From assembly GCA_964526195.1 (NCBI GenBank), contig CAZGIH010000017.1:131888-195887 (forward strand): a stretch of 64,000 nt of DNA, in the 5' to 3' direction. The position numbers were made by a program, and so were the translations under genes. The stretch comes from an uncultured Chromatiales bacterium. GTDB lineage: Bacteria; Pseudomonadota; Gammaproteobacteria; Poriferisulfidales; Poriferisulfidaceae. The notes under the pieces were generated by a model that worked only from the letters and a program-made list of their open reading frames with translations, was not told the DNA's origin and ran no database searches. Shown piece by piece: positions 29,313 to 47,517 of this stretch; position 1 is the stretch's first letter, and every line of letters starts with the position of its first letter.

Positions 29313-30428
29313 TCAGTGGCTCCGATGGTAGGTAATGCGGACATCGGGGCCCAGCGCACGGACGTCCTGCAGCGTCCAACCCAAGCGTTCCGGAAGGCCT
29401 TCGGCCGGTGGCAATTCCGCCAGGGGCGCGGCATCCGCACCCAGCAAGCGGGGCGCAATGTAGACCACCATCTCATCGACCAGGTCTTCCTGAATCAGTG
29501 CGCCGACGAACTTCGCGCCCGCCTCGACCAGAATGTCATTAATTTCGTAATCCATGGCCAACCCCGAGAGCACCGCTGCCAAGTCCAGCCCTTTCCCGCC
29601 AGCCTGCACTGTTTGGATTTCCGCTTCGGACGGAATGACCGTCCGGAGTTTTTCGGCATGCTCATCCAAGGTGTAGACCACGCAGGGCCCCGGCACCGAC
29701 CACAGGGAAAGATCGCTCGACAGTTCCCCTTTCCGATCCATGATCACCCGCAATGGTTGGCGAACCTGGCTGACGCCCAATACCTGTGCTTTCAGGCGAA
29801 CGTTGAGCCGGGCATCGTCCCGGCCTACGGTCGCAGCCGTCGACAGCACCGCTCCGCTTCGAGCCCGTTGCCACTGCACATCGGCGCGTGCCTCCAGACT
29901 TGTAATCCACTGGCTGTGTCCGTCGGCCAGCGCCGTCCCGCCATCCAGGCTCATCGCCTGCTTGACGCAGACCCAAGGCCGCCCGGTCGTCATACGTTTC
30001 CAGAACCCCCGGTTCAATGCATGCGTTCGTTCGGCCCCAATTCCTACCTCGCATTCAATGCCCGCTTCCTTCAGCATCCCGTGGCCGCGTCCAGCCACTT
30101 GGGGATTGGGATCTTCGCAGGCGGATACAACTCGCACGATGCCAGCGGCAATGATCTCCGACACGCACGGAGCTGTGCGCCCTTGGTGCGCACAAGGTTC
30201 GAGCGTCACGTACATCGTGGCTCCGCGCGCCCGGTCTCCTGCCTCCATCAAGGCTTGCGGTTCGGCGTGAAGTTCCCCGGTACGGCGATGAAATCCCCGC
30301 CCGACCACGGTACCATCGGCCACCACCAGGCACCCGACGCAGGGATTGGGGGATGCGGTATAGCGGCCTTGCTCCGCCAGTTCCAGCGCTTCTTCCATGA
30401 AGCGTGCGTCCGTCTCCTGCACCGTCAT
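29313..30428 (-). CDS. ribD: Bifunctional diaminohydroxyphosphoribosylaminopyrimidine deaminase / 5-amino-6-(5-phosphoribosylamino)uracil reductase
   Basis: Deaminase motifs HAE...PCxxC. Start at MTVQETDARFMEEAL (30428), ATGA overlap with the nrdR stop. The 585-aa ORF-track extension through nrdR is an antisense artefact. Confidence 0.9.
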   Translation of the reverse strand: MTVQETDARFMEEALELAEQGRYTASPNPCVGCLVVADGTVVGRGFHRRTGELHAEPQALMEAGDRARGATMYVTLEPCAHQGRTAPCVSEIIAAGIVRVVSACEDPNPQVAGRGHGMLKEAGIECEVGIGAERTHALNRGFWKRMTTGRPWVCVKQAMSLDGGTALADGHSQWITSLEARADVQWQRARSGAVLSTAATVGRDDARLNVRLKAQVLGVSQVRQPLRVIMDRKGELSSDLSLWSVPGPCVVYTLDEHAEKLRTVIPSEAEIQTVQAGGKGLDLAAVLSGLAMDYEINDILVEAGAKFVGALIQEDLVDEMVVYIAPRLLGADAAPLAELPPAEGLPERLGWTLQDVRALGPDVRITYHRSH

Positions 30429-30964
30429 GGCGGTGGAAGGTCGCCCGGAGTCTCTTCCCTGCTCAACAAGTCCAACTGTTTGCGCCTGGCCGATTCCGGC
30501 AGCGCATTGGCCTCGCGTTCCAGCAACTGCCGCCACTGTTCGATCGTGGTGATTTCCTCGAACACCGAGGCATACAGGATGCAGGCGATCTGATCCCGTT
30601 CGCGCAACTCGTCGATCACCCATAGCCCGATCGTCCGGCTCGAGATGCTCCTGCTCGGATAAGAGCGCGCCCGGTCGCAGACGTTCTGGACCATCTCTTC
30701 GATCACGTCCAAACTGACGGGCCGGTTGCGCGATGCCATCTCGATGCTCCATGTCAATTTTTCGGTATCGAAAGCCTGTGGGACCGATTGCCCTTTCTTC
30801 ACGACATCCGGGAGCTTCAGCTTCGCCCGCTCGTAAGTCGTGAAACGTTTCTGCTCGCAGTTCGGATTCAGGCATTGCCGGCGGCGGCGCACTTGATCGC
30901 CCCCACCCACCGGTCGGGAATCCAGGACCTGGGTATCGCCGTGTTTGCAGAACGGGCAGCGCAC
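30425..30964 (-). CDS. nrdR: Transcriptional repressor NrdR
   Basis: MRCPFCKHGDTQVLDSR zinc ribbon plus an ATP-cone domain. Confidence 0.9.
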   Translation of the reverse strand: MRCPFCKHGDTQVLDSRPVGGGDQVRRRRQCLNPNCEQKRFTTYERAKLKLPDVVKKGQSVPQAFDTEKLTWSIEMASRNRPVSLDVIEEMVQNVCDRARSYPSRSISSRTIGLWVIDELRERDQIACILYASVFEEITTIEQWRQLLEREANALPESARRKQLDLLSREETPGDLPPP

Positions 30965-31005
30965 GATCTCCTCGGCAGTGCTCCCGCTCCCTGGCCCGAG
31001 GCCGG

Positions 31006-32265
31006 TTAGTCGGCCTCGTACACCGGATAGCGCGCGCAGATTTCCTGCACCTGCCCACGCACGCGGTCAATTACGGATTCGTCGCCCAAGTTGTCGATGA
31101 TGTCGCACATCCAGCCGGCCAGCGTACGGCATTCATCTTCCTGGAAGCCTCGAGTCGTGACCGCGGGTGTGCCGACCCGGATGCCGCTGGTGACGAACGG
31201 AGACTTCGGGTCGTTGGGAACGGTGTTCTTGTTCACCGTGATGTGGGCCTGTCCCAGCGCAGCATCAACTTCCTTGCCGGTCAGTTCCTGGGCGATAAAG
31301 TCGACCAAGAACAGGTGGTCATCAGTCCCGCCGGAGACGACCTTGTAGTTGCGCTCGATGAATACTTCGGCCATAGCCTTGGCGTTGGCCAATACCTGGC
31401 ACTGGTATTCCTTGAACTCGGGCTGGGCAGCCTCGCGGAACGCCACCGCCTTCGCCGCGATGACATGCATCAGCGGGCCACCCTGCATCCCGGGGAACAC
31501 CATGGAGTTGATCTTCTTGGTGATCTCCTCGTTCTCGCGGGCAATAATGAAACCACTGCGGGGTCCGCGCAGTGTCTTGTGGGTGGTGGAAGTCACCACG
31601 TCGGCAACCGGAACCGGGCTCGGGTAGAGATCTGTGGCAATCAGCCCCGAGACGTGTGCCATGTCGACCATCAGCAAAGCTCCAACGGAATCGGAGATGT
31701 CGCGGAAGCGCTGCCAGTCCATGACCCGCGAATAAGCGGAAAATCCGGCCACGATCATCTTGGGACGGTGCTCGGCAGCCAATTGCTCTACCTGCTCGTA
31801 GTCCACTTCCCCTGTCTCCGGGTTCAACCCGTACTGAACCGCGTTGTAGTTCTGCCCGGAAAAGTTGACATGGGAGCCATGCGTCAGGTGTCCGCCGTGA
31901 GCCAAGGCCATGCCAAGCAGAGTGTCGCCCGGTTGCAGCAGCGCGGTGTACACCGCCGCATTCGCCTGGGACCCGGCGTGTGGCTGCACATTGGCGTAAT
32001 CCGCCTTGTACAACTCGCAGGCACGGTCGATCGCCAGTTGCTCGACCACGTCCACATGCTCACATCCCCCATAGTAACGCTTGGAGGGATAACCTTCCGC
32101 ATACTTGTTGGTCAGCACCGACCCCTGGGCTTCCAGGATTCGCGGACTGGTGTAGTTCTCGGAGGCGATCAGTTCGATATGTTCTTCCTGGCGGCGACGT
32201 TCCGCCTCCATCGCAGCAGCGACTTCCGGGTCGAATCCGGCAATGGTCAGATCTTTTTTAAACAT
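31006..32265 (-). CDS. glyA: Serine hydroxymethyltransferase
   Basis: 419 aa; PLP-lysine region [12 protein letters not shown]. Confidence 0.95.
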
Positions 32266-32318: not shown

Positions 32319-32702
32319 TCAGGCGGAACGACCCCCGGCCAGTTGCAACAGCAGCTCGGGCAGACTGGCCTCCGCGCCCAGATGCGTGCACAGGTTTATG
32401 AGTACGTCGGGATGCCGCTCACGCGCCTGATCCAGCAAGGCCGGAACGTCGTCGCGGACATGACGGCCCGCGGCCAGGAAATACGGCAGAACCCACAACT
32501 GTGCCGCACCCTGTGCGACACAGACGTCAATTCCCGTCGGAATATCCGGTTCGGCAATTTCGAGGAAAGCATGCGCCACGATCTCATACCGGTCACCGGA
32601 TGCCTCGCGCAGCCGGTCGGTGAGCTCGGCCACCTCGGTATTGGCCTCCGGCAGGCGCGAACCGTGCGCGACCAGCAGTAATGCACGTTTGCCGGCATTC
32701 AT
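32319..32702 (-). CDS. cbiX: Sirohydrochlorin chelatase, short CbiX(S)/SirB type
   Basis: 127 aa; LLLVAHGSR...H motif. Confidence 0.7.
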   Translation of the reverse strand: MNAGKRALLLVAHGSRLPEANTEVAELTDRLREASGDRYEIVAHAFLEIAEPDIPTGIDVCVAQGAAQLWVLPYFLAAGRHVRDDVPALLDQARERHPDVLINLCTHLGAEASLPELLLQLAGGRSA

Positions 32703-33433
32703 GCCAAAGCCTCCATCGCGGCGCGCACCCGCGCCAGATCCTCGGGCGTATCCACGCCCGGCGCTGTCGCTTCGACGCCCGGCTCAACATGGACGCGAAG
32801 GCCATGGTGAAGCATTCGGCATTGTTCCAGCGATTCCTCCAGTTCTTGCGGCGCCGGGGGCAACTTGACATACCGGGCAAGCCCGCCCGCGCGATAGGCG
32901 TAGATCCCCAAGTGGCGCTGGCAGCGTGCCTCTTCGATTTGCCGGGGCGCCCGGCTGAATCCTTCGGCGTATCCTTCCTCGTCCCGCCAGACTTTGACGA
33001 CCTGGGCGCGATCCCAATCCCCTTCACCGAGGGGTTCGCATAAAGTCGCCGCGAAAGCTTCGTCCCGCGCGGCCAAATTCCCGCCCACCTGAGCGATCAG
33101 GGCGGGCGGGAGCATCGGCTCGTCTGCCTGCACATTGACCACGATCGCATCCGCGTCCCAGTCCAGATATTCCAGCAATTCGCCCAAGCGGGCTGTCCCG
33201 TTCGGATGATCCGGGCGTGTCATCCAGACCGGCGCACCAATCGAACGGGCGCAGTCAGCCACCGCTTCGTCGCCCGCCGCAATCACGACCGAAGCGGCTC
33301 CGCTCTGCTGGGCGTGCTCAAAAACCCATTGCAGCATCGGCTTTCCGGCAATCTCGAGTAGTGGCTTGTTCGGCAGTCGCGTCGACGCGCTTCGCGCCGG
33401 AATCGCCACATGGAAGGGTCGGTCATGAATCAT
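32699..33433 (-). CDS. kdsB: 3-deoxy-manno-octulosonate cytidylyltransferase
   Basis: [19 protein letters not shown]-terminus; 244 aa. Confidence 0.9.
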
Positions 33434-33641
33434 GCCGGTAGCGCTGGTATTCCTCTTCCGACAGTCCGCGCGCCTCTTCTTCCAGCAAGACCGGAATGTC
33501 GTCGCGCACCGGGTAAGCCAGGCGCGCCGACAATGAAATCAATTCCTGCTGCTCACGGTCGTACAGCAGCGGGCCCTTGGTGACCGGGCAGACAAGGATA
33601 TCCAATAGTCTTTTGTCCATCTGTTCCTGACTCCTGCTCAT
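33423..33641 (-). CDS. ycaR: Trm112/YcaR family protein
   Basis: [14 protein letters not shown]...L...DIPVLL motif. The start ATG at 33641 overlaps the lpxK stop (ATGA). Confidence 0.7.
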
Positions 33642-36490
33642 GTCCTCGCTTCGGCATCCAAGGAATCCAGTGCCTTCGCCTTTCGATTCTCCTCGACGAC
33701 ACGTTGCGCGCTGCCGATGATTTCCTCGGCAACAACCGGTTCCAGCGCTACGTCGACCTCCAAAGAATACCACCGTTCACGGGCAAAACGCTCGCACTTG
33801 ACCGCATCCTTGGGCGTCATGATTACCGCGTGACCATCCGCAAAGTCGAGTTGTCCGGCCCGGAAAGCGTGGTGATCCTCGTAGAGGTGCGGAATCGCGT
33901 CGATCCCGGCGCTGGCCAAGGATTCCAGGAACCGGTGTGGATTCCCGATCCCGCAGACCGCATGCACGGTCTGCCCCGCAAAGCTGGACAGCGGGGTCGT
34001 GCTGCCGTCAAGCAAAGAGCGCAGGTGTTTCACCTGCAAGTCAAACCGGTGTTCTCCTGGCTCCGGATCTCCTCCGTGCACCAAGATCCAATCGGCCAAA
34101 CGTGCACGCCCGAGCGGCTCTCTCAACGGCCCGGCAGGCAGGCACAAGCCGTTGCCGTGCCGGCGTTTGCCGTCCACCACCAGGATCTCGATCTCCCGCG
34201 ACAAGCCCAAATGCTGCAACCCGTCATCCGACAAGATGATGCTGACGGTATGCCGCTCGCAAAGCGCCTGCGCGGCAGCAACCCGGTCCGGGCCTGCAAA
34301 CACGGGACAGCCCGTCTGTGCCGCAATCAGAACCGCTTCCTCCCCGACCTCATCGGGGCTGGTCGCGGCATCAACCTCTCGGGGCCAGGTTGGACTGTCG
34401 CCCCGGTAGCCCCGGCACACGATTCCGACCGACACCCCCAAGCTTCGAAGCCGGAGCGCAAGCCAGACCACCAGAGGGGTTTTCCCGGTGCCTCCGACGC
34501 TCAGGTTGCCGATGACTGCCACAGGCACGGGCAAGGCGGCCGGCCGATTCAGCCAACGACGCCAGAGCCGTCGCAGGAACACGCCGGTGCGATACAGCCA
34601 ACTCAGCGGTCGCAAGGCCCACACCCAGCGGCTATCCTCGTACCAGACAGTCTCAGCAAAACGCGTCACCCAGGACTGATGCCGGGTGCTCTCTTCCTCC
34701 AGCAGTTCCCCGCGGCGGGGCGGGCGTTCTTCGACATCTCCCGTATCCTGGAATTGATGCTGATAGAGCTTTCTGTAGACCTGATTCCTCTGAATCAACT
34801 CTTCATGCGTGCCCTGTTCGACGACCTCGCCTTGATCCAGGACGACGATCCGGTCTGCACGTTCCACCGTCGACAATCGATGCGCGATGATCAGGGTGGT
34901 GGAAACTTCCATGATCTTGTCTAAGGCCTCCTGCACATACCGCTCGGACTCGCTGTCCAGCGATGAGGTCGCTTCGTCCAGGATCAGGATCGGTGCTCGC
35001 TTGTACAGGGCTCGGGCCAAGGCCAGGCGCTGTCGCTGACCCCCAGAGAGCTGTACACCCCCTTCCCCGATGATGGTCTCCAGGCCTTGTGGCAGGTGAG
35101 CCACAAATTCGTCGACGTGCGCACTGCGCAGCGCCAACTCCAGGTCATGCTGCTGATCCGGATCCACTCCATAGGTGATGTTGTTGCGCACCGTGTCGTT
35201 GAACAGCACCACGTTCTGTCCCACATAGCTGATCAGCCCCCGCAGATTGGACAACTGCAGGTCGTTGATCGGAATGTCGTCGATCCGGATTTCTCCACTC
35301 TGCGGGGCGTAAAAACGCGGCAACAGGTTGGCGAGGGAAGACTTGCCGGAACCGGAACGCCCGACCAAGGCCACGGTCTCGCCACGTCGGATCGTCAGCG
35401 AGACATTGCGAAGCGCTTCGCGATCCGTGTTGCGGTAACGCAAACTGATCCGGTCATAGACGATCGAATGCTGCAGATCCTGCTTGGAATGTTCGCCCTG
35501 ATCCTGTTCCACCGGGGTATCCAGCATCTGGAAAACCTGTTGTCCGGCGGCGATGCTCTGTTGCAGCCGGGTGTTGACCTGCACCAGATTGCGTGCCGGA
35601 GCCAGCAGCATCAGCATGGCGAACATGAACGATACGAACCCACCGACCGTAATGGTGCTGAGCACTCCTTCCAGCGTCACCAGGTAGACGATGCCGGCCC
35701 AGGCCAGCCCGACCAGCAGCATGATGATCGAAGAGACCAAGGCCGCCATCTGTTGCGTGCGAACCTGTCGCTTCCGGAAATGCTCGGTCGTCTCATCGAA
35801 ACGTGTTTTTTCCATCGTCTCGGCCTGGAACACCTTCACGACCCGGTAACCTTGAATTACCTCCTGGGCGTTCTGCACGGTCGCAGTAAGCGCCTCCATC
35901 ATGCGGTGGCTAAGCTTCCGGACTCTTCGGTTGCTGCTTGGAATCAGCCAGGCAAACACCGGCACGGCCGCCAGGAAGGCAACCGTCAGGATCCAACTCA
36001 CGTACAGCATCCAGCCGACCAGGCCGATCACCATCAGGCTGTCCCGGATCAGGATAGTGAGGCTTTTCGACGCCGCCGTTGTCACGCCCTCGACGTGGCT
36101 GGTGATGCGCGCCAGGAAATCGCTGGAAGCCGTATGGTCGTGGGTTTCCGCTGGAAATTCGAGCAGGCGTGCAAACATTTTCCGCCGCAGGTCCCGGACC
36201 AGGCGCGCACCAATCTGCGCCATGCAGGAGGCGCTGAGGTACGAGCCGACCGCTCGCAGCACGAAAATCCCGATCAACGCCAGCGGTACCCAGCGGATGA
36301 CGTCCGGCTGCTGCTCGACGATCGCGCCATCCAGGATCGGTTTCATCAGCGCCGACAATGCGGGGCCTGTTGCAGCCTCCATCGCCATGCCGAGCACCGC
36401 CAATGTCAGGATGCCGCTCTGACCTTGCAGGGCAAGCCGCAGCAACTGCCGATAAATGTCCATGCCGGAACGGCGCGTAATCTCGTTCAT
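33638..36490 (-). CDS. msbA-lpxK: Fused lipid A ABC exporter MsbA (N-terminal, about 590 aa) + tetraacyldisaccharide 4'-kinase LpxK (C-terminal, about 330 aa), single 950-aa ORF
   Basis: ABC transmembrane and ATPase motifs ([23 protein letters not shown]). These run through a roughly 30-aa linker with no stop and no Met into the LpxK N-terminus (LRPLSWLY...[13 protein letters not shown]). Confidence 0.85.
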
Positions 36491-36900
36491 GGCAAGCGCT
36501 CGCCCAATGTTGCAACCCGGATTTGCTGCACACCCTGCCCCCGGGCTTGCGCCATCAGGTACACGACCGACTGGTGCGGCGTCAACGCATGGGCGTAAAC
36601 GTAGACCACCGCGTCTGGTTGATCCGCGAGCGCGAGGTGCAACTGTGCCGCCAAGGCCTCGGGTTCGTCTGGAAGAAGCTGCCCGTTCAGGTAATAGTCC
36701 CCCATTGCATCAATGGCCAGGTTGATGCGCACCTCGGTGCCGGCCGTTTCCGCTTCACCACGCGGCAGTTGGATTTTCAGAAAATCGAGTTGGCTGAACG
36801 TCGTGGTCAGCATGAAAAACAACAGCAACAAGAACACGACATCGATCAGCGGCGTCAGCGGGATCGAAAAAGCATCTCCTTGGCGAACCTGAAATTTCAC
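36487..36900 (-). CDS. exbD: ExbD/TolR family biopolymer transport protein
   Basis: 137 aa, single TM helix, ExbD fold. ATGA overlaps on both sides. Confidence 0.8.
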   Translation of the reverse strand: MKFQVRQGDAFSIPLTPLIDVVFLLLLFFMLTTTFSQLDFLKIQLPRGEAETAGTEVRINLAIDAMGDYYLNGQLLPDEPEALAAQLHLALADQPDAVVYVYAHALTPHQSVVYLMAQARGQGVQQIRVATLGERLP

Positions 36901-37514
36901 GGTGTCCCCTGCTCGCGTTGCTGCAATACATCCATCAGCTGGTGCGCCACTGACTCCATTTGAGAAATCAGTACGGAAACCTTGCGTTGAAAAAAGCGGT
37001 GAAAGATTACGGCCGGAATCGCCACAGCCAAGCCAGCCGCGGTAGTAATCAGCGCCTGTGCAATACCCCCAGCCAGATCCGATGGCTGCCCCAGCCCCGT
37101 CGTCATAATCTGATCGAACACGACGATGAGCCCCCAGACCGTCCCCAGAAGGCCCAGCAAGGGAGAAATCATCGCAATGGTGCCGAGTGCCGCCAAGAAG
37201 CGTTCCAGCTCGACCGCACCCCGACGGCCCGCATCCTCGATCGCCGTCTTGCGTTCCTCCAGCGTCTGCTGGTGGAGATTCAAGCCGGCCGCCAATACGC
37301 GCCCTAATTGCGAACTGTTGCGCAGCGCGTCAAGGCGATCCCCATCCAGCGCATCCTGCTGCAACCAAGCTCGTACCTGTGCCAGCAGGCCATCCGGCAT
37401 GACTTGGCCCTGCCGCAGAGCCCAACTACGCTCCAAAATGATGGCCAACGCCAGGATGGAGCACAGCAGAATCGGCACCATTACCCAGCCTCCGGCCTGT
37501 ACTAAATCCAGCAT
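36897..37514 (-). CDS. exbB: MotA/TolQ/ExbB proton channel family protein
   Basis: 205 aa, 3 TM helices, TolQ/ExbB signature. Confidence 0.8.
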   Translation of the reverse strand: MLDLVQAGGWVMVPILLCSILALAIILERSWALRQGQVMPDGLLAQVRAWLQQDALDGDRLDALRNSSQLGRVLAAGLNLHQQTLEERKTAIEDAGRRGAVELERFLAALGTIAMISPLLGLLGTVWGLIVVFDQIMTTGLGQPSDLAGGIAQALITTAAGLAVAIPAVIFHRFFQRKVSVLISQMESVAHQLMDVLQQREQGTP

Positions 37515-38846: not shown

Positions 38847-39551
38847 TTACCACTCCCTGACCACCTGCCCCTCCGACAAGCGGTAACCTGTCTGCATCGT
38901 TTTCGCCAAGGTTTCGTCGTGTGTCACTAGAACCAGCGCAATTCCTCGCTCGGCATTCAACTGCTTCATCAGGTCGAAGACCTCGTGCGCCGTGTGAGGG
39001 TCAAGATTCCCGGTCGGCTCATCGGCCAGAACAACATCCGGGTCCATGACCAGCGCGCGGCAGACCGCCACCCGTTGCCTCTCCCCTCCCGACAATTCTC
39101 CTGGGCGATGCTGCAGGCGATCACTCATATCCACCCGTTTCAGCAGTTCCACGGCTTTCTCGCAGGCTTGTTCGACCGACATCCCCCCGATCAACGGCGG
39201 CATGGTGACATTCTCCAATGCCGAAAATTCCGGCAGAAGGTGATGCATCTGATATACGAAGCCTAGGCTACGGTTGCGCAATCTCGCCTGTTCCGAGTCA
39301 GCCAGCGTATCAATTCGACGGCCGCCAACCTCGACAATGCCCGCGTCAGGCCGGTCTAGGCCCGCGAGCAGGTGCAACAGAGTGCTTTTCCCGCACCCGG
39401 AAGCACCAACAATCGCCATACTCTCACCCCGAGCGACCTCCAATTCCAGGTCACGCAGGACATCAACCTGCACCTCTCCAGAACCAAACGACTTGGTCAG
39501 TCCAGAGCAACGCAGCACAGAATCACTCCAACGCAGTTCGGAATCACTCAT
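38847..39551 (-). CDS. lolD: Lipoprotein-releasing system ATP-binding protein LolD
   Basis: ABC ATPase motifs (GASGCGKST, LSGGERQR). Confidence 0.85.
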   Translation of the reverse strand: MSDSELRWSDSVLRCSGLTKSFGSGEVQVDVLRDLELEVARGESMAIVGASGCGKSTLLHLLAGLDRPDAGIVEVGGRRIDTLADSEQARLRNRSLGFVYQMHHLLPEFSALENVTMPPLIGGMSVEQACEKAVELLKRVDMSDRLQHRPGELSGGERQRVAVCRALVMDPDVVLADEPTGNLDPHTAHEVFDLMKQLNAERGIALVLVTHDETLAKTMQTGYRLSEGQVVREW

Positions 39552-40794
39552 AGCGCAACACCTCGGCCGGCATGACCTGCAACGCCTTACGCGCCGGGTA
39601 AACGGCAGCGATCACAGACAGGAGAATCGAAGCTACCGATGCAATCACCACGTCTCCCCAAAGCAATTGTGACGGAATCTCACTAATGTAATAAACTTCC
39701 GGCGAAAAGACCTTGAAACTAAAGGCTTTTTCTATCATTCCAACGACCACCTGAAGGTTGTAGGACAAGGCCACCCCCCCGCCGACTCCCAGCGCCGTCC
39801 CCCCAAGACCGATCGTCAAGCCTTGCAACAGGAAGACTTGGAGTGTCCCGCGCTGGGTCATGCCTAAAGTGCGCAGTACGGCGATATCGGAGCGCTTTTC
39901 CAGCACCGTCATCAATAGCGCAGAAATAATGTTGAACGCCGCCACCAGCACGATCAGCATCAGAAGGAGAAACAGCATGGTTTTTTCCATCTGGATCGCT
40001 TTGAAGAAGCCGTTGTCCAGATCCGACCAGTCCAGCACCCAGTAACGCCCGTCCAACTCTTCGCGGAACCGGTCAGCCAACCACGGTGCCTTGAACAAGT
40101 CCTGGAGACGGACTTTCAGGCCGCCGACCTCCCCTTCGCCCAGCGCCAGCGCCTGGCGGGCATCCTCCAGGTGCACCAAGGCTAGGTGCCGGTCGTAGCT
40201 CCGCATGTCGAGATCAAAGATCCCGACTACCTCGAAACGGCGGAATTTGGGGAGAAGTCCGGCGATCGTACTGGCTGCCCGCGGCACGATCAGGGTCACC
40301 TGATCACCCACCCGGACATTCAAATGTCGAGCCAGTTCATCGCCCAGCACGATCCGGTATGCGCCTGGTTCCAGCCGATCCAGAGTGCCTCGGGTCATAT
40401 GCTGTGCAATTCGGGAAGCTTCCGCCTCCAGCGTCGGCAGCATGCCTCGCAGCCCGACTCCGCTGACACGATCCTGGTAAAGCAGCATTCCCTGGCCTTC
40501 GATGAACGGCGCGCTCGCGACCACTTCCGGGTACTGCGTTAATTGCTCCGCCAGCCCGCGCCAGTCCTGCAACTTCCGGTCCGGCTCGCTGATGCTGATG
40601 TGGGACACCATGCCCAGCAATCGATCCCGAATCTCGGTGTGAAACCCGTTCATGACCGACATCACGGCGATCACCGCGGTCAATCCCAGCGCAATGCCCA
40701 GCGTTGAAACCAACGAGATGAAAGAGATAAAACGATGCCGGTGGCGTGCCCGAAGGTAACGCAAGCCGATGTACAGAGGGACTGGGAGATTCAC
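39544..40794 (-). CDS. lolE: Lipoprotein-releasing system permease LolC/LolE
   Basis: 416 aa FtsX-like permease paired with lolD. Confidence 0.8.
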   Translation of the reverse strand: MNLPVPLYIGLRYLRARHRHRFISFISLVSTLGIALGLTAVIAVMSVMNGFHTEIRDRLLGMVSHISISEPDRKLQDWRGLAEQLTQYPEVVASAPFIEGQGMLLYQDRVSGVGLRGMLPTLEAEASRIAQHMTRGTLDRLEPGAYRIVLGDELARHLNVRVGDQVTLIVPRAASTIAGLLPKFRRFEVVGIFDLDMRSYDRHLALVHLEDARQALALGEGEVGGLKVRLQDLFKAPWLADRFREELDGRYWVLDWSDLDNGFFKAIQMEKTMLFLLLMLIVLVAAFNIISALLMTVLEKRSDIAVLRTLGMTQRGTLQVFLLQGLTIGLGGTALGVGGGVALSYNLQVVVGMIEKAFSFKVFSPEVYYISEIPSQLLWGDVVIASVASILLSVIAAVYPARKALQVMPAEVLRYE

Positions 40795-46939: not shown

Positions 46940-47517
46940 GCACCGAGCTGCAGGGTCCAGCCCTGCAGGGAGTCCGAAATTTCCCGATGCGTCGCCATCA
47001 CGACCGCCCCGCCCCGGTCCAGTTGCCGGTGCACTTGGGTTTCGAACCATTTCACCGAGGTCTCGTCCAATGAGGTCAGGGGTTCATCCAGCAACCAAAG
47101 CCGACGGGTACTGAACGCCAGCCGGGCCAGCGCAACGCGCCGGGCCTGTCCCTCTGACAGGCGTCCCGCGCGCGTTTCGAAGAAGGCACCAAGCCCCACC
47201 GCTTCGAGCGCTGCAGCCGAGGCTCCGGCCTCGTCTCCCTCCAGAGCCGCCATGAACTCCAGGTTCTCGCGGGCCGTCAGGCCAGCACTGACCGCCACCC
47301 GGTGGCCGACCCACAGCACCGGCTCACGCTCCCCTTGCCAGACCAGTTCCCCTTGTTCAGCCGGCGACAAGTCCGCCAGGATCCTCAGCAGCGAAGTCTT
47401 GCCGCTGCCGTTGGCACCGCGCACCAGCCACAGTTGCCCGGCATCGACCTTGAACGAGAGGTTCTCGAACAGGGATCGTCCGTCGCGACGACAGCCGAGT
47501 CCGCGCGCCTCAAGCAT
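46936..47517 (-). CDS. ccmA: Heme exporter ATP-binding protein CcmA
   Basis: The start at MLEARGLGCRR aligns with E. coli CcmA. Walker A GANGSGKTS. Confidence 0.85.
   Translation of the reverse strand: MLEARGLGCRRDGRSLFENLSFKVDAGQLWLVRGANGSGKTSLLRILADLSPAEQGELVWQGEREPVLWVGHRVAVSAGLTARENLEFMAALEGDEAGASAAALEAVGLGAFFETRAGRLSEGQARRVALARLAFSTRRLWLLDEPLTSLDETSVKWFETQVHRQLDRGGAVVMATHREISDSLQGWTLQLGA

Follow-up and report, generated by a model that had tools for sequence, protein, structure and literature searches.

An in-frame fusion of MsbA and LpxK in an uncultured Chromatiales bacterium and its relatives

The DNA analyzed here, which we refer to as the window, is a 64,000-nt stretch of contig CAZGIH010000017.1 (positions 131,888 to 195,887, assembly GCA_964526195.1) from an uncultured Chromatiales bacterium. 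It carries on its minus strand a gene, msbA::lpxK, that encodes MsbA (the lipid A flippase) together with LpxK (the lipid A 4'-kinase). The open reading frame (ORF) listing gives one uninterrupted ORF at positions 33638-36490, with an ATG start and 950 codons plus stop, and Pfam places ABC_membrane (residues 30-295), ABC_tran (residues 360-509), and LpxK (residues 623-924) on the single 950-aa polypeptide. Both halves also pass the cut-offs of their equivalog models, as described below, and the claim of an initial annotation that this is a genuine in-frame fusion without a stop codon is thereby borne out. By homology with the E. coli proteins, the MsbA part ends at about D582 and the LpxK part begins at about V608, leaving 25 residues (583-607) that are homologous to neither. 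We conclude that the gene very probably encodes a bifunctional inner-membrane protein, in which LpxK is joined to the C-terminus of the ATP-binding domain of an MsbA half-transporter, and that it is an evolutionarily fixed fusion of operon neighbors.

The fused gene belongs to an exbB-exbD-msbA::lpxK-trm112-kdsB operon (Table 1) in which each gene overlaps the next. The exbB and exbD genes share 4 nt (GTGA, 36897-36900), the exbD stop overlaps the fusion ATG in an ATGA at 36487-36490, the fusion TGA stop overlaps the trm112 ATG in an ATGA at 33638-33641, and trm112 and kdsB share 11 nt (33423-33433). It is at stop/start overlaps of this kind that small indels join neighboring genes. The synteny at kdsB is the same on a metagenomic contig with unfused genes (L063), at a SAR86 locus (L064), and in E. 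coli.

Table 1. Features of the msbA::lpxK locus, with positions in the window
Feature	Position	Strand	Basis and remarks
exbB/tolQ-family gene, first gene of the operon	36897..37514	-	PF01618, E 1e-32
exbD/tolR-family gene	36487..36900	-	PF02472, E 1.5e-25
Fused msbA::lpxK gene, 950 codons + stop	33638..36490	-	Single ORF, both domain sets, same ORF in 11 related genomes
MsbA module, aa 1-582	34745..36490	-	Transmembrane domain (TMD) ~aa 22-330, nucleotide-binding domain (NBD) ~aa 340-582; TIGR02203, E. coli alignment, Foldseek
Flexible tether, aa ~581-590	34721..34750	-	Only segment of the junction with predicted local distance difference test (pLDDT) score <50; least conserved part of the junction
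Clade-specific structured extension, aa 591-607	34670..34720	-	Homologous to neither parent protein; conservation, pLDDT, ratio of nonsynonymous to synonymous substitution rates (dN/dS)
In-frame GTG, codon 608	34667..34669	-	Context tggGTGAcg; few residues from the stand-alone LpxK start
LpxK N-terminal helices, aa 608-646	34553..34669	-	Arg/Trp-rich amphipathic helix, putatively for membrane association, aa 621-646; DSSP, A. aeolicus alignment
LpxK catalytic core, aa 656-924	33719..34525	-	P-loop aa 661-672 (34475-34510); PF02606, E 3e-94
C-terminal helical tail, aa 925-950, + stop codon	33638..33718	-	Poorly conserved; helix predicted at 918-949
trm112/ycaR-family gene	33423..33641	-	PF03966, E 3.6e-16
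kdsB (CMP-Kdo synthetase family), last lipopolysaccharide (LPS) gene of the operon	32699..33433	-	PF02348, E 2e-42

The N-terminal half has the hallmarks of an MsbA. Residues 22-582 score 644.9 bits against the MsbA equivalog model TIGR02203 (cut-off 602). The score against the enterobacterial-type model NF008381 is 527, under its cut-off of 867, and the MsbA half is therefore not of the enteric subtype. PF00664 and PF00005 are both present, and the AlphaFold model shows the corresponding architecture of long transmembrane helices followed by the NBD. When the full model was searched with Foldseek, the best matches were the MsbA proteins of E. coli, P. aeruginosa, A. baumannii, and Salmonella, with target-normalized template modeling (TM) scores of 0.66-0.77. 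The ATPase motifs are intact, with a Walker A (G377-K383), Q-loop (Q425), LSGGQ signature (L481-Q485), Walker B (D505-E506), and H-loop (H537), and the motif residues are invariant over 27 to 58 aligned sequences. R79, R149, and R300 align with R78, R148, and K299 of E. coli MsbA, the residues in contact with lipid A in LPS-bound MsbA structures; R79 is invariant and the other two are nearly so. On these sequence features, the MsbA half is predicted to be a flippase of core-lipid A.

LpxK works at the cytoplasmic face of the inner membrane, with which it associates via an amphipathic N-terminal helix and a basic patch. In the fused protein, residues 630-916 score 220.8 bits against the LpxK equivalog TIGR00682 (cut-off 91.95), and PF02606 is matched over profile positions 2-323 of 328 at 316.3 bits (cut-off 27). 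An AlphaFold model of residues 576-950 has a pLDDT of 93.8, and the LpxK module superposes on the A. aeolicus structure 4EHY with a target-normalized TM-score of 0.83 and a root-mean-square deviation of 3.0 Å over 323 columns. In the full model, DSSP assigns helices at 607-617 and 621-646. The A. aeolicus residues K51/T52, R72, E100, and R119 map to K670/T671, R693, E718, and R736, and D138/D139, H143, and H261 map to D755/D756, H760, and H873; their catalytic and substrate-binding roles are taken from a 2018 review (PMC6286764). The mapped residues that were checked are invariant or nearly invariant, and the P-loop and the DDGLQH motif are invariant. At its far end the protein closes with a long predicted helix that goes past the length of E. 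coli LpxK (~328 aa), and the tail (residues 925-950) has a mean identity of only 24% within the clade. We note that the coding sequence of LpxK contains a hairpin resembling a terminator, complete with a T-rich tail (34020-34038, minus strand). It is probably due to chance, with only 2 such matches found vs 4.7 expected from shuffled sequences.

The initial annotation had suggested that orthologues be compared, and this comparison recovers the same fused ORF in 11 Candidatus Porisulfidus species genomes, and MsbA-LpxK fusions also in other marine lineages, to which we return below. The uninterrupted ORF in these 11 genomes encodes 941-950 aa at 70-99% identity, and seven of the genomes are chromosome records of 1.6-2.0 Mb. 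The scan took one genome per species, and the matches are labeled either Candidatus Porisulfidus or gammaproteobacterial or Chromatiales sponge metagenome-assembled genomes (MAGs); the window is 99% identical to a contig of MAG COS4_bin_16. Porisulfidus has been described as a known sponge symbiont (PMC12988363). More than 20 clusters in the protein database, at 64-99% identity, have the length and domains of the window protein. Computed over eight genes of 950 codons each, dN/dS comes to 0.05 in MsbA, 0.12 in the linker (residues 583-607), 0.12 in the N-terminal helices of LpxK, 0.125 in its core, and 0.37 in the C-terminal tail. With a dS of ~0.96 in the linker, these values indicate that this segment has diverged a great deal and yet kept both its frame and its constraint.

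The junction was described in the initial annotation as a linker of roughly 30 residues, and the residues quoted there agree with the junction sequence. A linker does exist, but the part of the 25 non-homologous residues that is predicted to be flexible amounts to only about ten, and what follows is a conserved extension of 17 residues that is modeled as structured. In the full AlphaFold model (pLDDT 80.3, predicted TM-score (pTM) 0.54), the only junction residues with a pLDDT below 50 are 581-589; in the model of residues 576-950 they are 576-583. Residues 592-607, by contrast, have pLDDT values of 86-95 and include a β-strand at 602-604, even when MsbA is omitted from the model. R593, G594, T602, and H604 are invariant in 15 proteins of the Porisulfidus clade, and the motif RG.LL.E..T.H is confined to this fused clade, being found in none of the unfused LpxKs examined. 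Because the segment is structured without MsbA, is conserved, and bears a motif found only in the clade, we count most of the linker with LpxK. The models thus suggest a flexible tether of ~10 residues that leads into a structured segment, specific to the lineage, at the N-terminus of the LpxK module. We considered whether the motif was inherited from a free LpxK with a long N-terminus and rejected this origin, since such free LpxKs have unrelated N-terminal sequence. The modeling, which the initial annotation had also proposed, thus matched both folds and suggested the division into tether and extension.

A fusion of this kind might in principle be created by a sequencing or assembly error, with msbA and lpxK in truth separate and the stop codon erased by a 1-nt indel. 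The junction tggGTGAcg does resemble overlapping stop and start codons, with a TGA in the +1 frame, and on a related contig (L065) a separate 709-aa MsbA is called. The initial annotation had proposed that a 1-nt correction restoring a stop would undo the fusion. This proposal fails on the relatives, where a single frame is kept in all 11 species genomes, drawn from at least five separate assembly records plus the seven chromosome records, where the linker is under purifying selection in the fused frame, and where R593, G594, T602, and H604 are invariant. Contig L065 (ENA contig ctg538362_3x_l) is labeled 3x, and its copy of the fused gene (L065:3437-6296) is broken at ~aa 574, ~aa 700, and aa 880. 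These three frame changes are scattered over the gene rather than being a single one at the junction, and they are most likely sequencing errors, although a pseudogene is possible. The indel artifact is effectively refuted, and we give it practically no chance of being correct. Two proteins that might have passed for unfused relatives were likewise rejected: P0023, the 709-aa "MsbA only" protein, comes from this 3x contig with its three frame changes, and P0290, a 393-aa "LpxK only" protein for which no contig is recorded, starts inside the ATP-binding domain and is a fragment of a fused protein. A real fused gene could still yield two proteins if LpxK were also, or mainly, produced separately by initiation at GTG608 or by proteolysis of the tether, in which case the covalent link would be transient or partial. 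The initial annotation correctly stated that there is no internal Met at the junction, though codon 608 is an in-frame GTG a few residues from the ancestral LpxK start and is ATG in one relative (L003). The tether (residues 581-590) is modeled as disordered and would be accessible to proteases, and the other genes of the operon are translationally coupled without strong Shine-Dalgarno sequences. Codon 608 is, however, GTG or ATG only in the closest relatives (L001-L004 and L011); no start codon stands there in L005-L010 or in most of the clade, and V608 is only 7% conserved. A conserved internal LpxK start was rejected for this reason, since no group but the closest subclade can initiate at this codon. 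No purine-rich Shine-Dalgarno sequence was found in the 18 nt upstream of codon 608, and the search for an internal promoter or terminator at the junction returned nothing above shuffled expectation. Moreover, residues 591-607 are conserved, under selection, and predicted to pack on LpxK, which would be pointless if LpxK began at residue 608. We regard the production of two proteins from this gene as improbable.

The LpxK module departs from its stand-alone counterparts at two points, which could be taken to mean that it has been repurposed as a weakly active or inactive appendage of MsbA that binds lipid A or regulates the transporter, with the true kinase encoded elsewhere. At the position of A. 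aeolicus D99 the window has a Glu (E717, codon 717, window 34340-34342), as do all 21 Porisulfidus-clade proteins with the motif, whereas 124 of 127 unfused LpxKs and a further 48 fused proteins carry Asp. In addition, the putative membrane-binding helix (residues 621-646) is unusually polar, with a best 19-residue Kyte-Doolittle mean of 0.38 compared to 1.52 in E. coli and a mean of 1.48 in unfused LpxKs. Against such a loss of function, every other catalytic or substrate residue mapped above aligns and is invariant or nearly so, the LpxK core is as strongly constrained as its dN/dS indicates, and the module occupies the canonical lpxK position with trm112-kdsB next. There is no second LpxK in the 64-kb window, where a search for another msbA or lpxK gave only weak generic ABC ATPase domain matches at 38979-39464 and 46984-47502. 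D99 of A. aeolicus LpxK hydrogen-bonds the catalytic His (His261), and the review of this enzyme implies that a conservative D99 mutant is the least damaging (PMC6286764). Since the carboxylate is kept, E717 is read as a conservative clade-specific variant, not a loss of function. The other fused lineages retain Asp. We consider a repurposed, non-kinase LpxK module very unlikely. The polarity of the helix extends to fused proteins in general (0.95 vs 1.48 for unfused proteins, p = 4e-9), and it persists with one representative per 60% cluster (1.0 vs 1.6, p = 0.03). Lower hydrophobicity of the LpxK helix fits the MsbA TMD acting as the anchor, which is suggestive, not decisive.

Several points nonetheless weigh against the interpretation of msbA::lpxK as the gene of an intact, bifunctional transporter-kinase. 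The intact 950-aa product is a prediction from the gene, and in the closest subclade an in-frame start codon does lie close to the ancestral LpxK start. The pTM of 0.54 for the full model leaves the relative placement of LpxK and MsbA unfixed, and a tether of only ~10 residues might be too short for LpxK, attached behind the ATP-binding domain, to bring its membrane face to the bilayer. The clade-wide Glu at the D99 position might lower kinase activity. Finally, the hydropathy gap between fused and unfused helices is modest after correction for relatedness, and the unfused proteins were selected for their resemblance to the query.

MsbA is a homodimeric half-transporter whose C-terminus is cytoplasmic. 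Because MsbA works as a homodimer, a transporter dimer would bear two LpxK modules, each attached through the flexible tether and the clade-specific structured 17-residue extension, and each presumably still reaching its lipid substrate at the cytoplasmic membrane face via the amphipathic N-terminal helix. The likeliest effects of such an arrangement would be obligatory 1:1 co-expression, co-localization, and anchoring of the kinase in the membrane by the MsbA TMD; anchoring of this kind could in turn have relaxed selection on the hydrophobicity of LpxK's own helix. The initial annotation went further and proposed that the fusion is a channeling arrangement, a suggestion that lacks support in that form. 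In the established Raetz pathway the two activities do not act on consecutive intermediates: the product of LpxK is lipid IVA, and what MsbA flips has normally first been modified by WaaA, LpxL/LpxM, and the core glycosyltransferases (PMC4412817, PMC6286764). No species smaller than lipid IVA can be transported by E. coli and keep it alive, and lipid IVA itself is transported only in special backgrounds (PMC6286764). Because of these intervening steps, strict channeling is unlikely, as is a direct transfer of lipid IVA from the kinase to MsbA, and fixed stoichiometry with co-localization is the likelier effect.

The same architecture occurs, unremarked, in many public sequences. Fused MsbA-LpxK proteins are also found in SAR86 (P0123), in Ca. 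Azotimanducaceae of the order Pseudomonadales (P0034/P0042), and in a gammaproteobacterial cluster from Tara Oceans (P0257) that is present on ~100 contigs; at the SAR86 locus (L064), the fusion is followed by trm112-kdsB-murB. When 1.84 billion representatives were searched with a junction-centered query, at least ~19 of those at the 50% level proved to cross the junction in one stretch, and this number is a lower bound because eukaryotic ABC transporters with two NBDs swamped the list after about the first 20 matches. The other fused lineages share the domain order of the window protein and are comparable in length, mostly 912-1031 aa with a single protein of 1146 aa, but their full-length identity to it is only 38-41%. 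The RG.LL.E..T.H extension is absent from them, their residue at the D99 position is still Asp, and their linkers of 25-56 aa are unrelated in sequence, often of low complexity, and often rich in Pro, Ser, Thr, and Ala. Since the linkers are unrelated between lineages, the fusion appears to be recurrent in marine Gammaproteobacteria, and the other fused lineages probably arose independently. In a neighbor-joining tree built from the MsbA domain, unfused MsbAs form the sister group of the Porisulfidus clade, which itself falls within the other fused lineages. Unfused MsbAs are in this way interspersed with fused ones, which indicates several fusions or some fissions; because the sampling is biased, the tree does not settle the number of events.

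One consequence concerns annotation, in that an LpxK lies hidden under the name "MsbA". Where source names are given for the fused proteins (P0001, P0025, P0034, P0036, P0042, P0123, P0279; 912-1018 aa), they read only "MsbA" or "subfamily B ABC protein MsbA", so that the essential kinase LpxK can be wrongly scored as absent when pathways are reconstructed for sponge symbionts, SAR86, and marine Gammaproteobacteria related to them. A second consequence concerns topology. With the kinase on the cytoplasmic C-terminus of MsbA, the LpxK N-terminus and its "membrane helix" must, for the kinase to work, remain on the cytoplasmic side, an argument that independently supports the interfacial, non-spanning model of LpxK derived from the A. 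aeolicus structures. A natural 2:2 transporter-kinase with a short tether would also be a convenient target for cryogenic electron microscopy, both for the orientation of LpxK on the membrane and for the clustering of lipid A enzymes around MsbA. We can also imagine, though we think it doubtful, that the fusion makes covalent an MsbA-LpxK complex that forms non-covalently where the genes are separate, with LpxK docked by the intracellular and ATP-binding domains of MsbA and its lipid-binding face at the membrane. If so, late lipid A synthesis would be organized around the flippase, the tether and the adaptor at residues 591-607 would fix the geometry, and the repeated independent fusions would reflect an existing interface rather than mere gene adjacency. 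What is new here is the joint architecture; both proteins, the type of fusion event, and the functional association of the partners are already known. The locus illustrates cleanly how fusion recurs where stop and start codons overlap in compact genomes, but it leaves the known pathway unchanged, and we judge its importance to be moderate.

Elsewhere in the window, an apparent NrdR-RibD fusion at 29313-31070 (minus strand) was dismissed: the 218-aa N-terminal extension of the 585-aa "RibD" ORF overlaps a separate nrdR frame. This nrdR gene lies at 30425-30964 (minus strand), in an ordinary glyA-nrdR-ribD order. Near the fusion, a MacB/FtsX-type permease (LolC/E-like; 39544-40794, minus strand) stands beside the ABC ATPase-like stretch at 38979-39464, and a similar permease-ATPase pair is found directly upstream of the fusion at the SAR86 locus (L064:3046-4948).

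The closest unfused relative found is on metagenomic contig L063, which encodes an MsbA of 586 aa (P0043, 51% identical) and an LpxK of 326 aa. Its gene order is that of the window (DUF2062, exbB, exbD, msbA, lpxK, trm112, and a truncated gene at the kdsB position), but msbA has a stop codon, followed by a 38-nt spacer and an lpxK with its own ATG, whereas in the window the two are merged. E. coli K-12 encodes both proteins as well, likewise with msbA first; its MsbA residues 22-580 align position-for-position, and ycaR/trm112 and kdsB lie downstream. As the initial annotation stated, the genes there are neighboring but separate: they overlap by 4 nt (ATGA) and encode two polypeptides (MsbA 582 aa, LpxK 328 aa), whereas the window has no stop and 25 extra codons in between. 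The E. coli operon runs ycaI-msbA-lpxK-ycaQ and then ycaR-kdsB; in the window exbB-exbD stand upstream in place of ycaI, and there is no ycaQ. The E. coli genes are co-transcribed (PMC10328246), and as read from the sequence, fusing them would need a 1-nt insertion or a 2-nt deletion. Because the operon is compact and msbA and lpxK are closely spaced or overlapping in unfused genomes, the simplest origin would be loss of the msbA stop codon with in-frame read-through into lpxK, and the fusion probably arose in this way within the tightly packed operon. The Rosetta-stone link drawn in the initial annotation is valid, as the genes are separate in L063 and E. coli and fused here, but it tells us little that is new, since the common operon and common pathway of msbA and lpxK were established before.

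Compared with A. aeolicus LpxK (4EHX, 4EHY, 4LKV), the fused module has the same two-domain P-loop kinase fold, with its N-terminal helix and catalytic residues aligned. The A. aeolicus enzyme stands alone and starts at the amphipathic helix, whereas in the window this helix is internal and follows the structured extension and the whole of MsbA. In the literature searched, we found no description of a natural MsbA-LpxK fusion, and the sole lipid A pathway fusion that we met there is lpxC/fabZ (PMC3087551). That survey does not have MsbA in its main text and has lpxK only in a waaA-lpxK gene cluster, not fused. The lpxC/fabZ fusion of Bacteroidetes, Chlorobi, and Verrucomicrobia is alike in that adjacent genes of a lipid A cluster have become one gene (PMC3087551), but its partners are two soluble enzymes in competition for a single pool of acyl-acyl carrier protein (acyl-ACP), whereas MsbA-LpxK joins an enzyme to a transporter.

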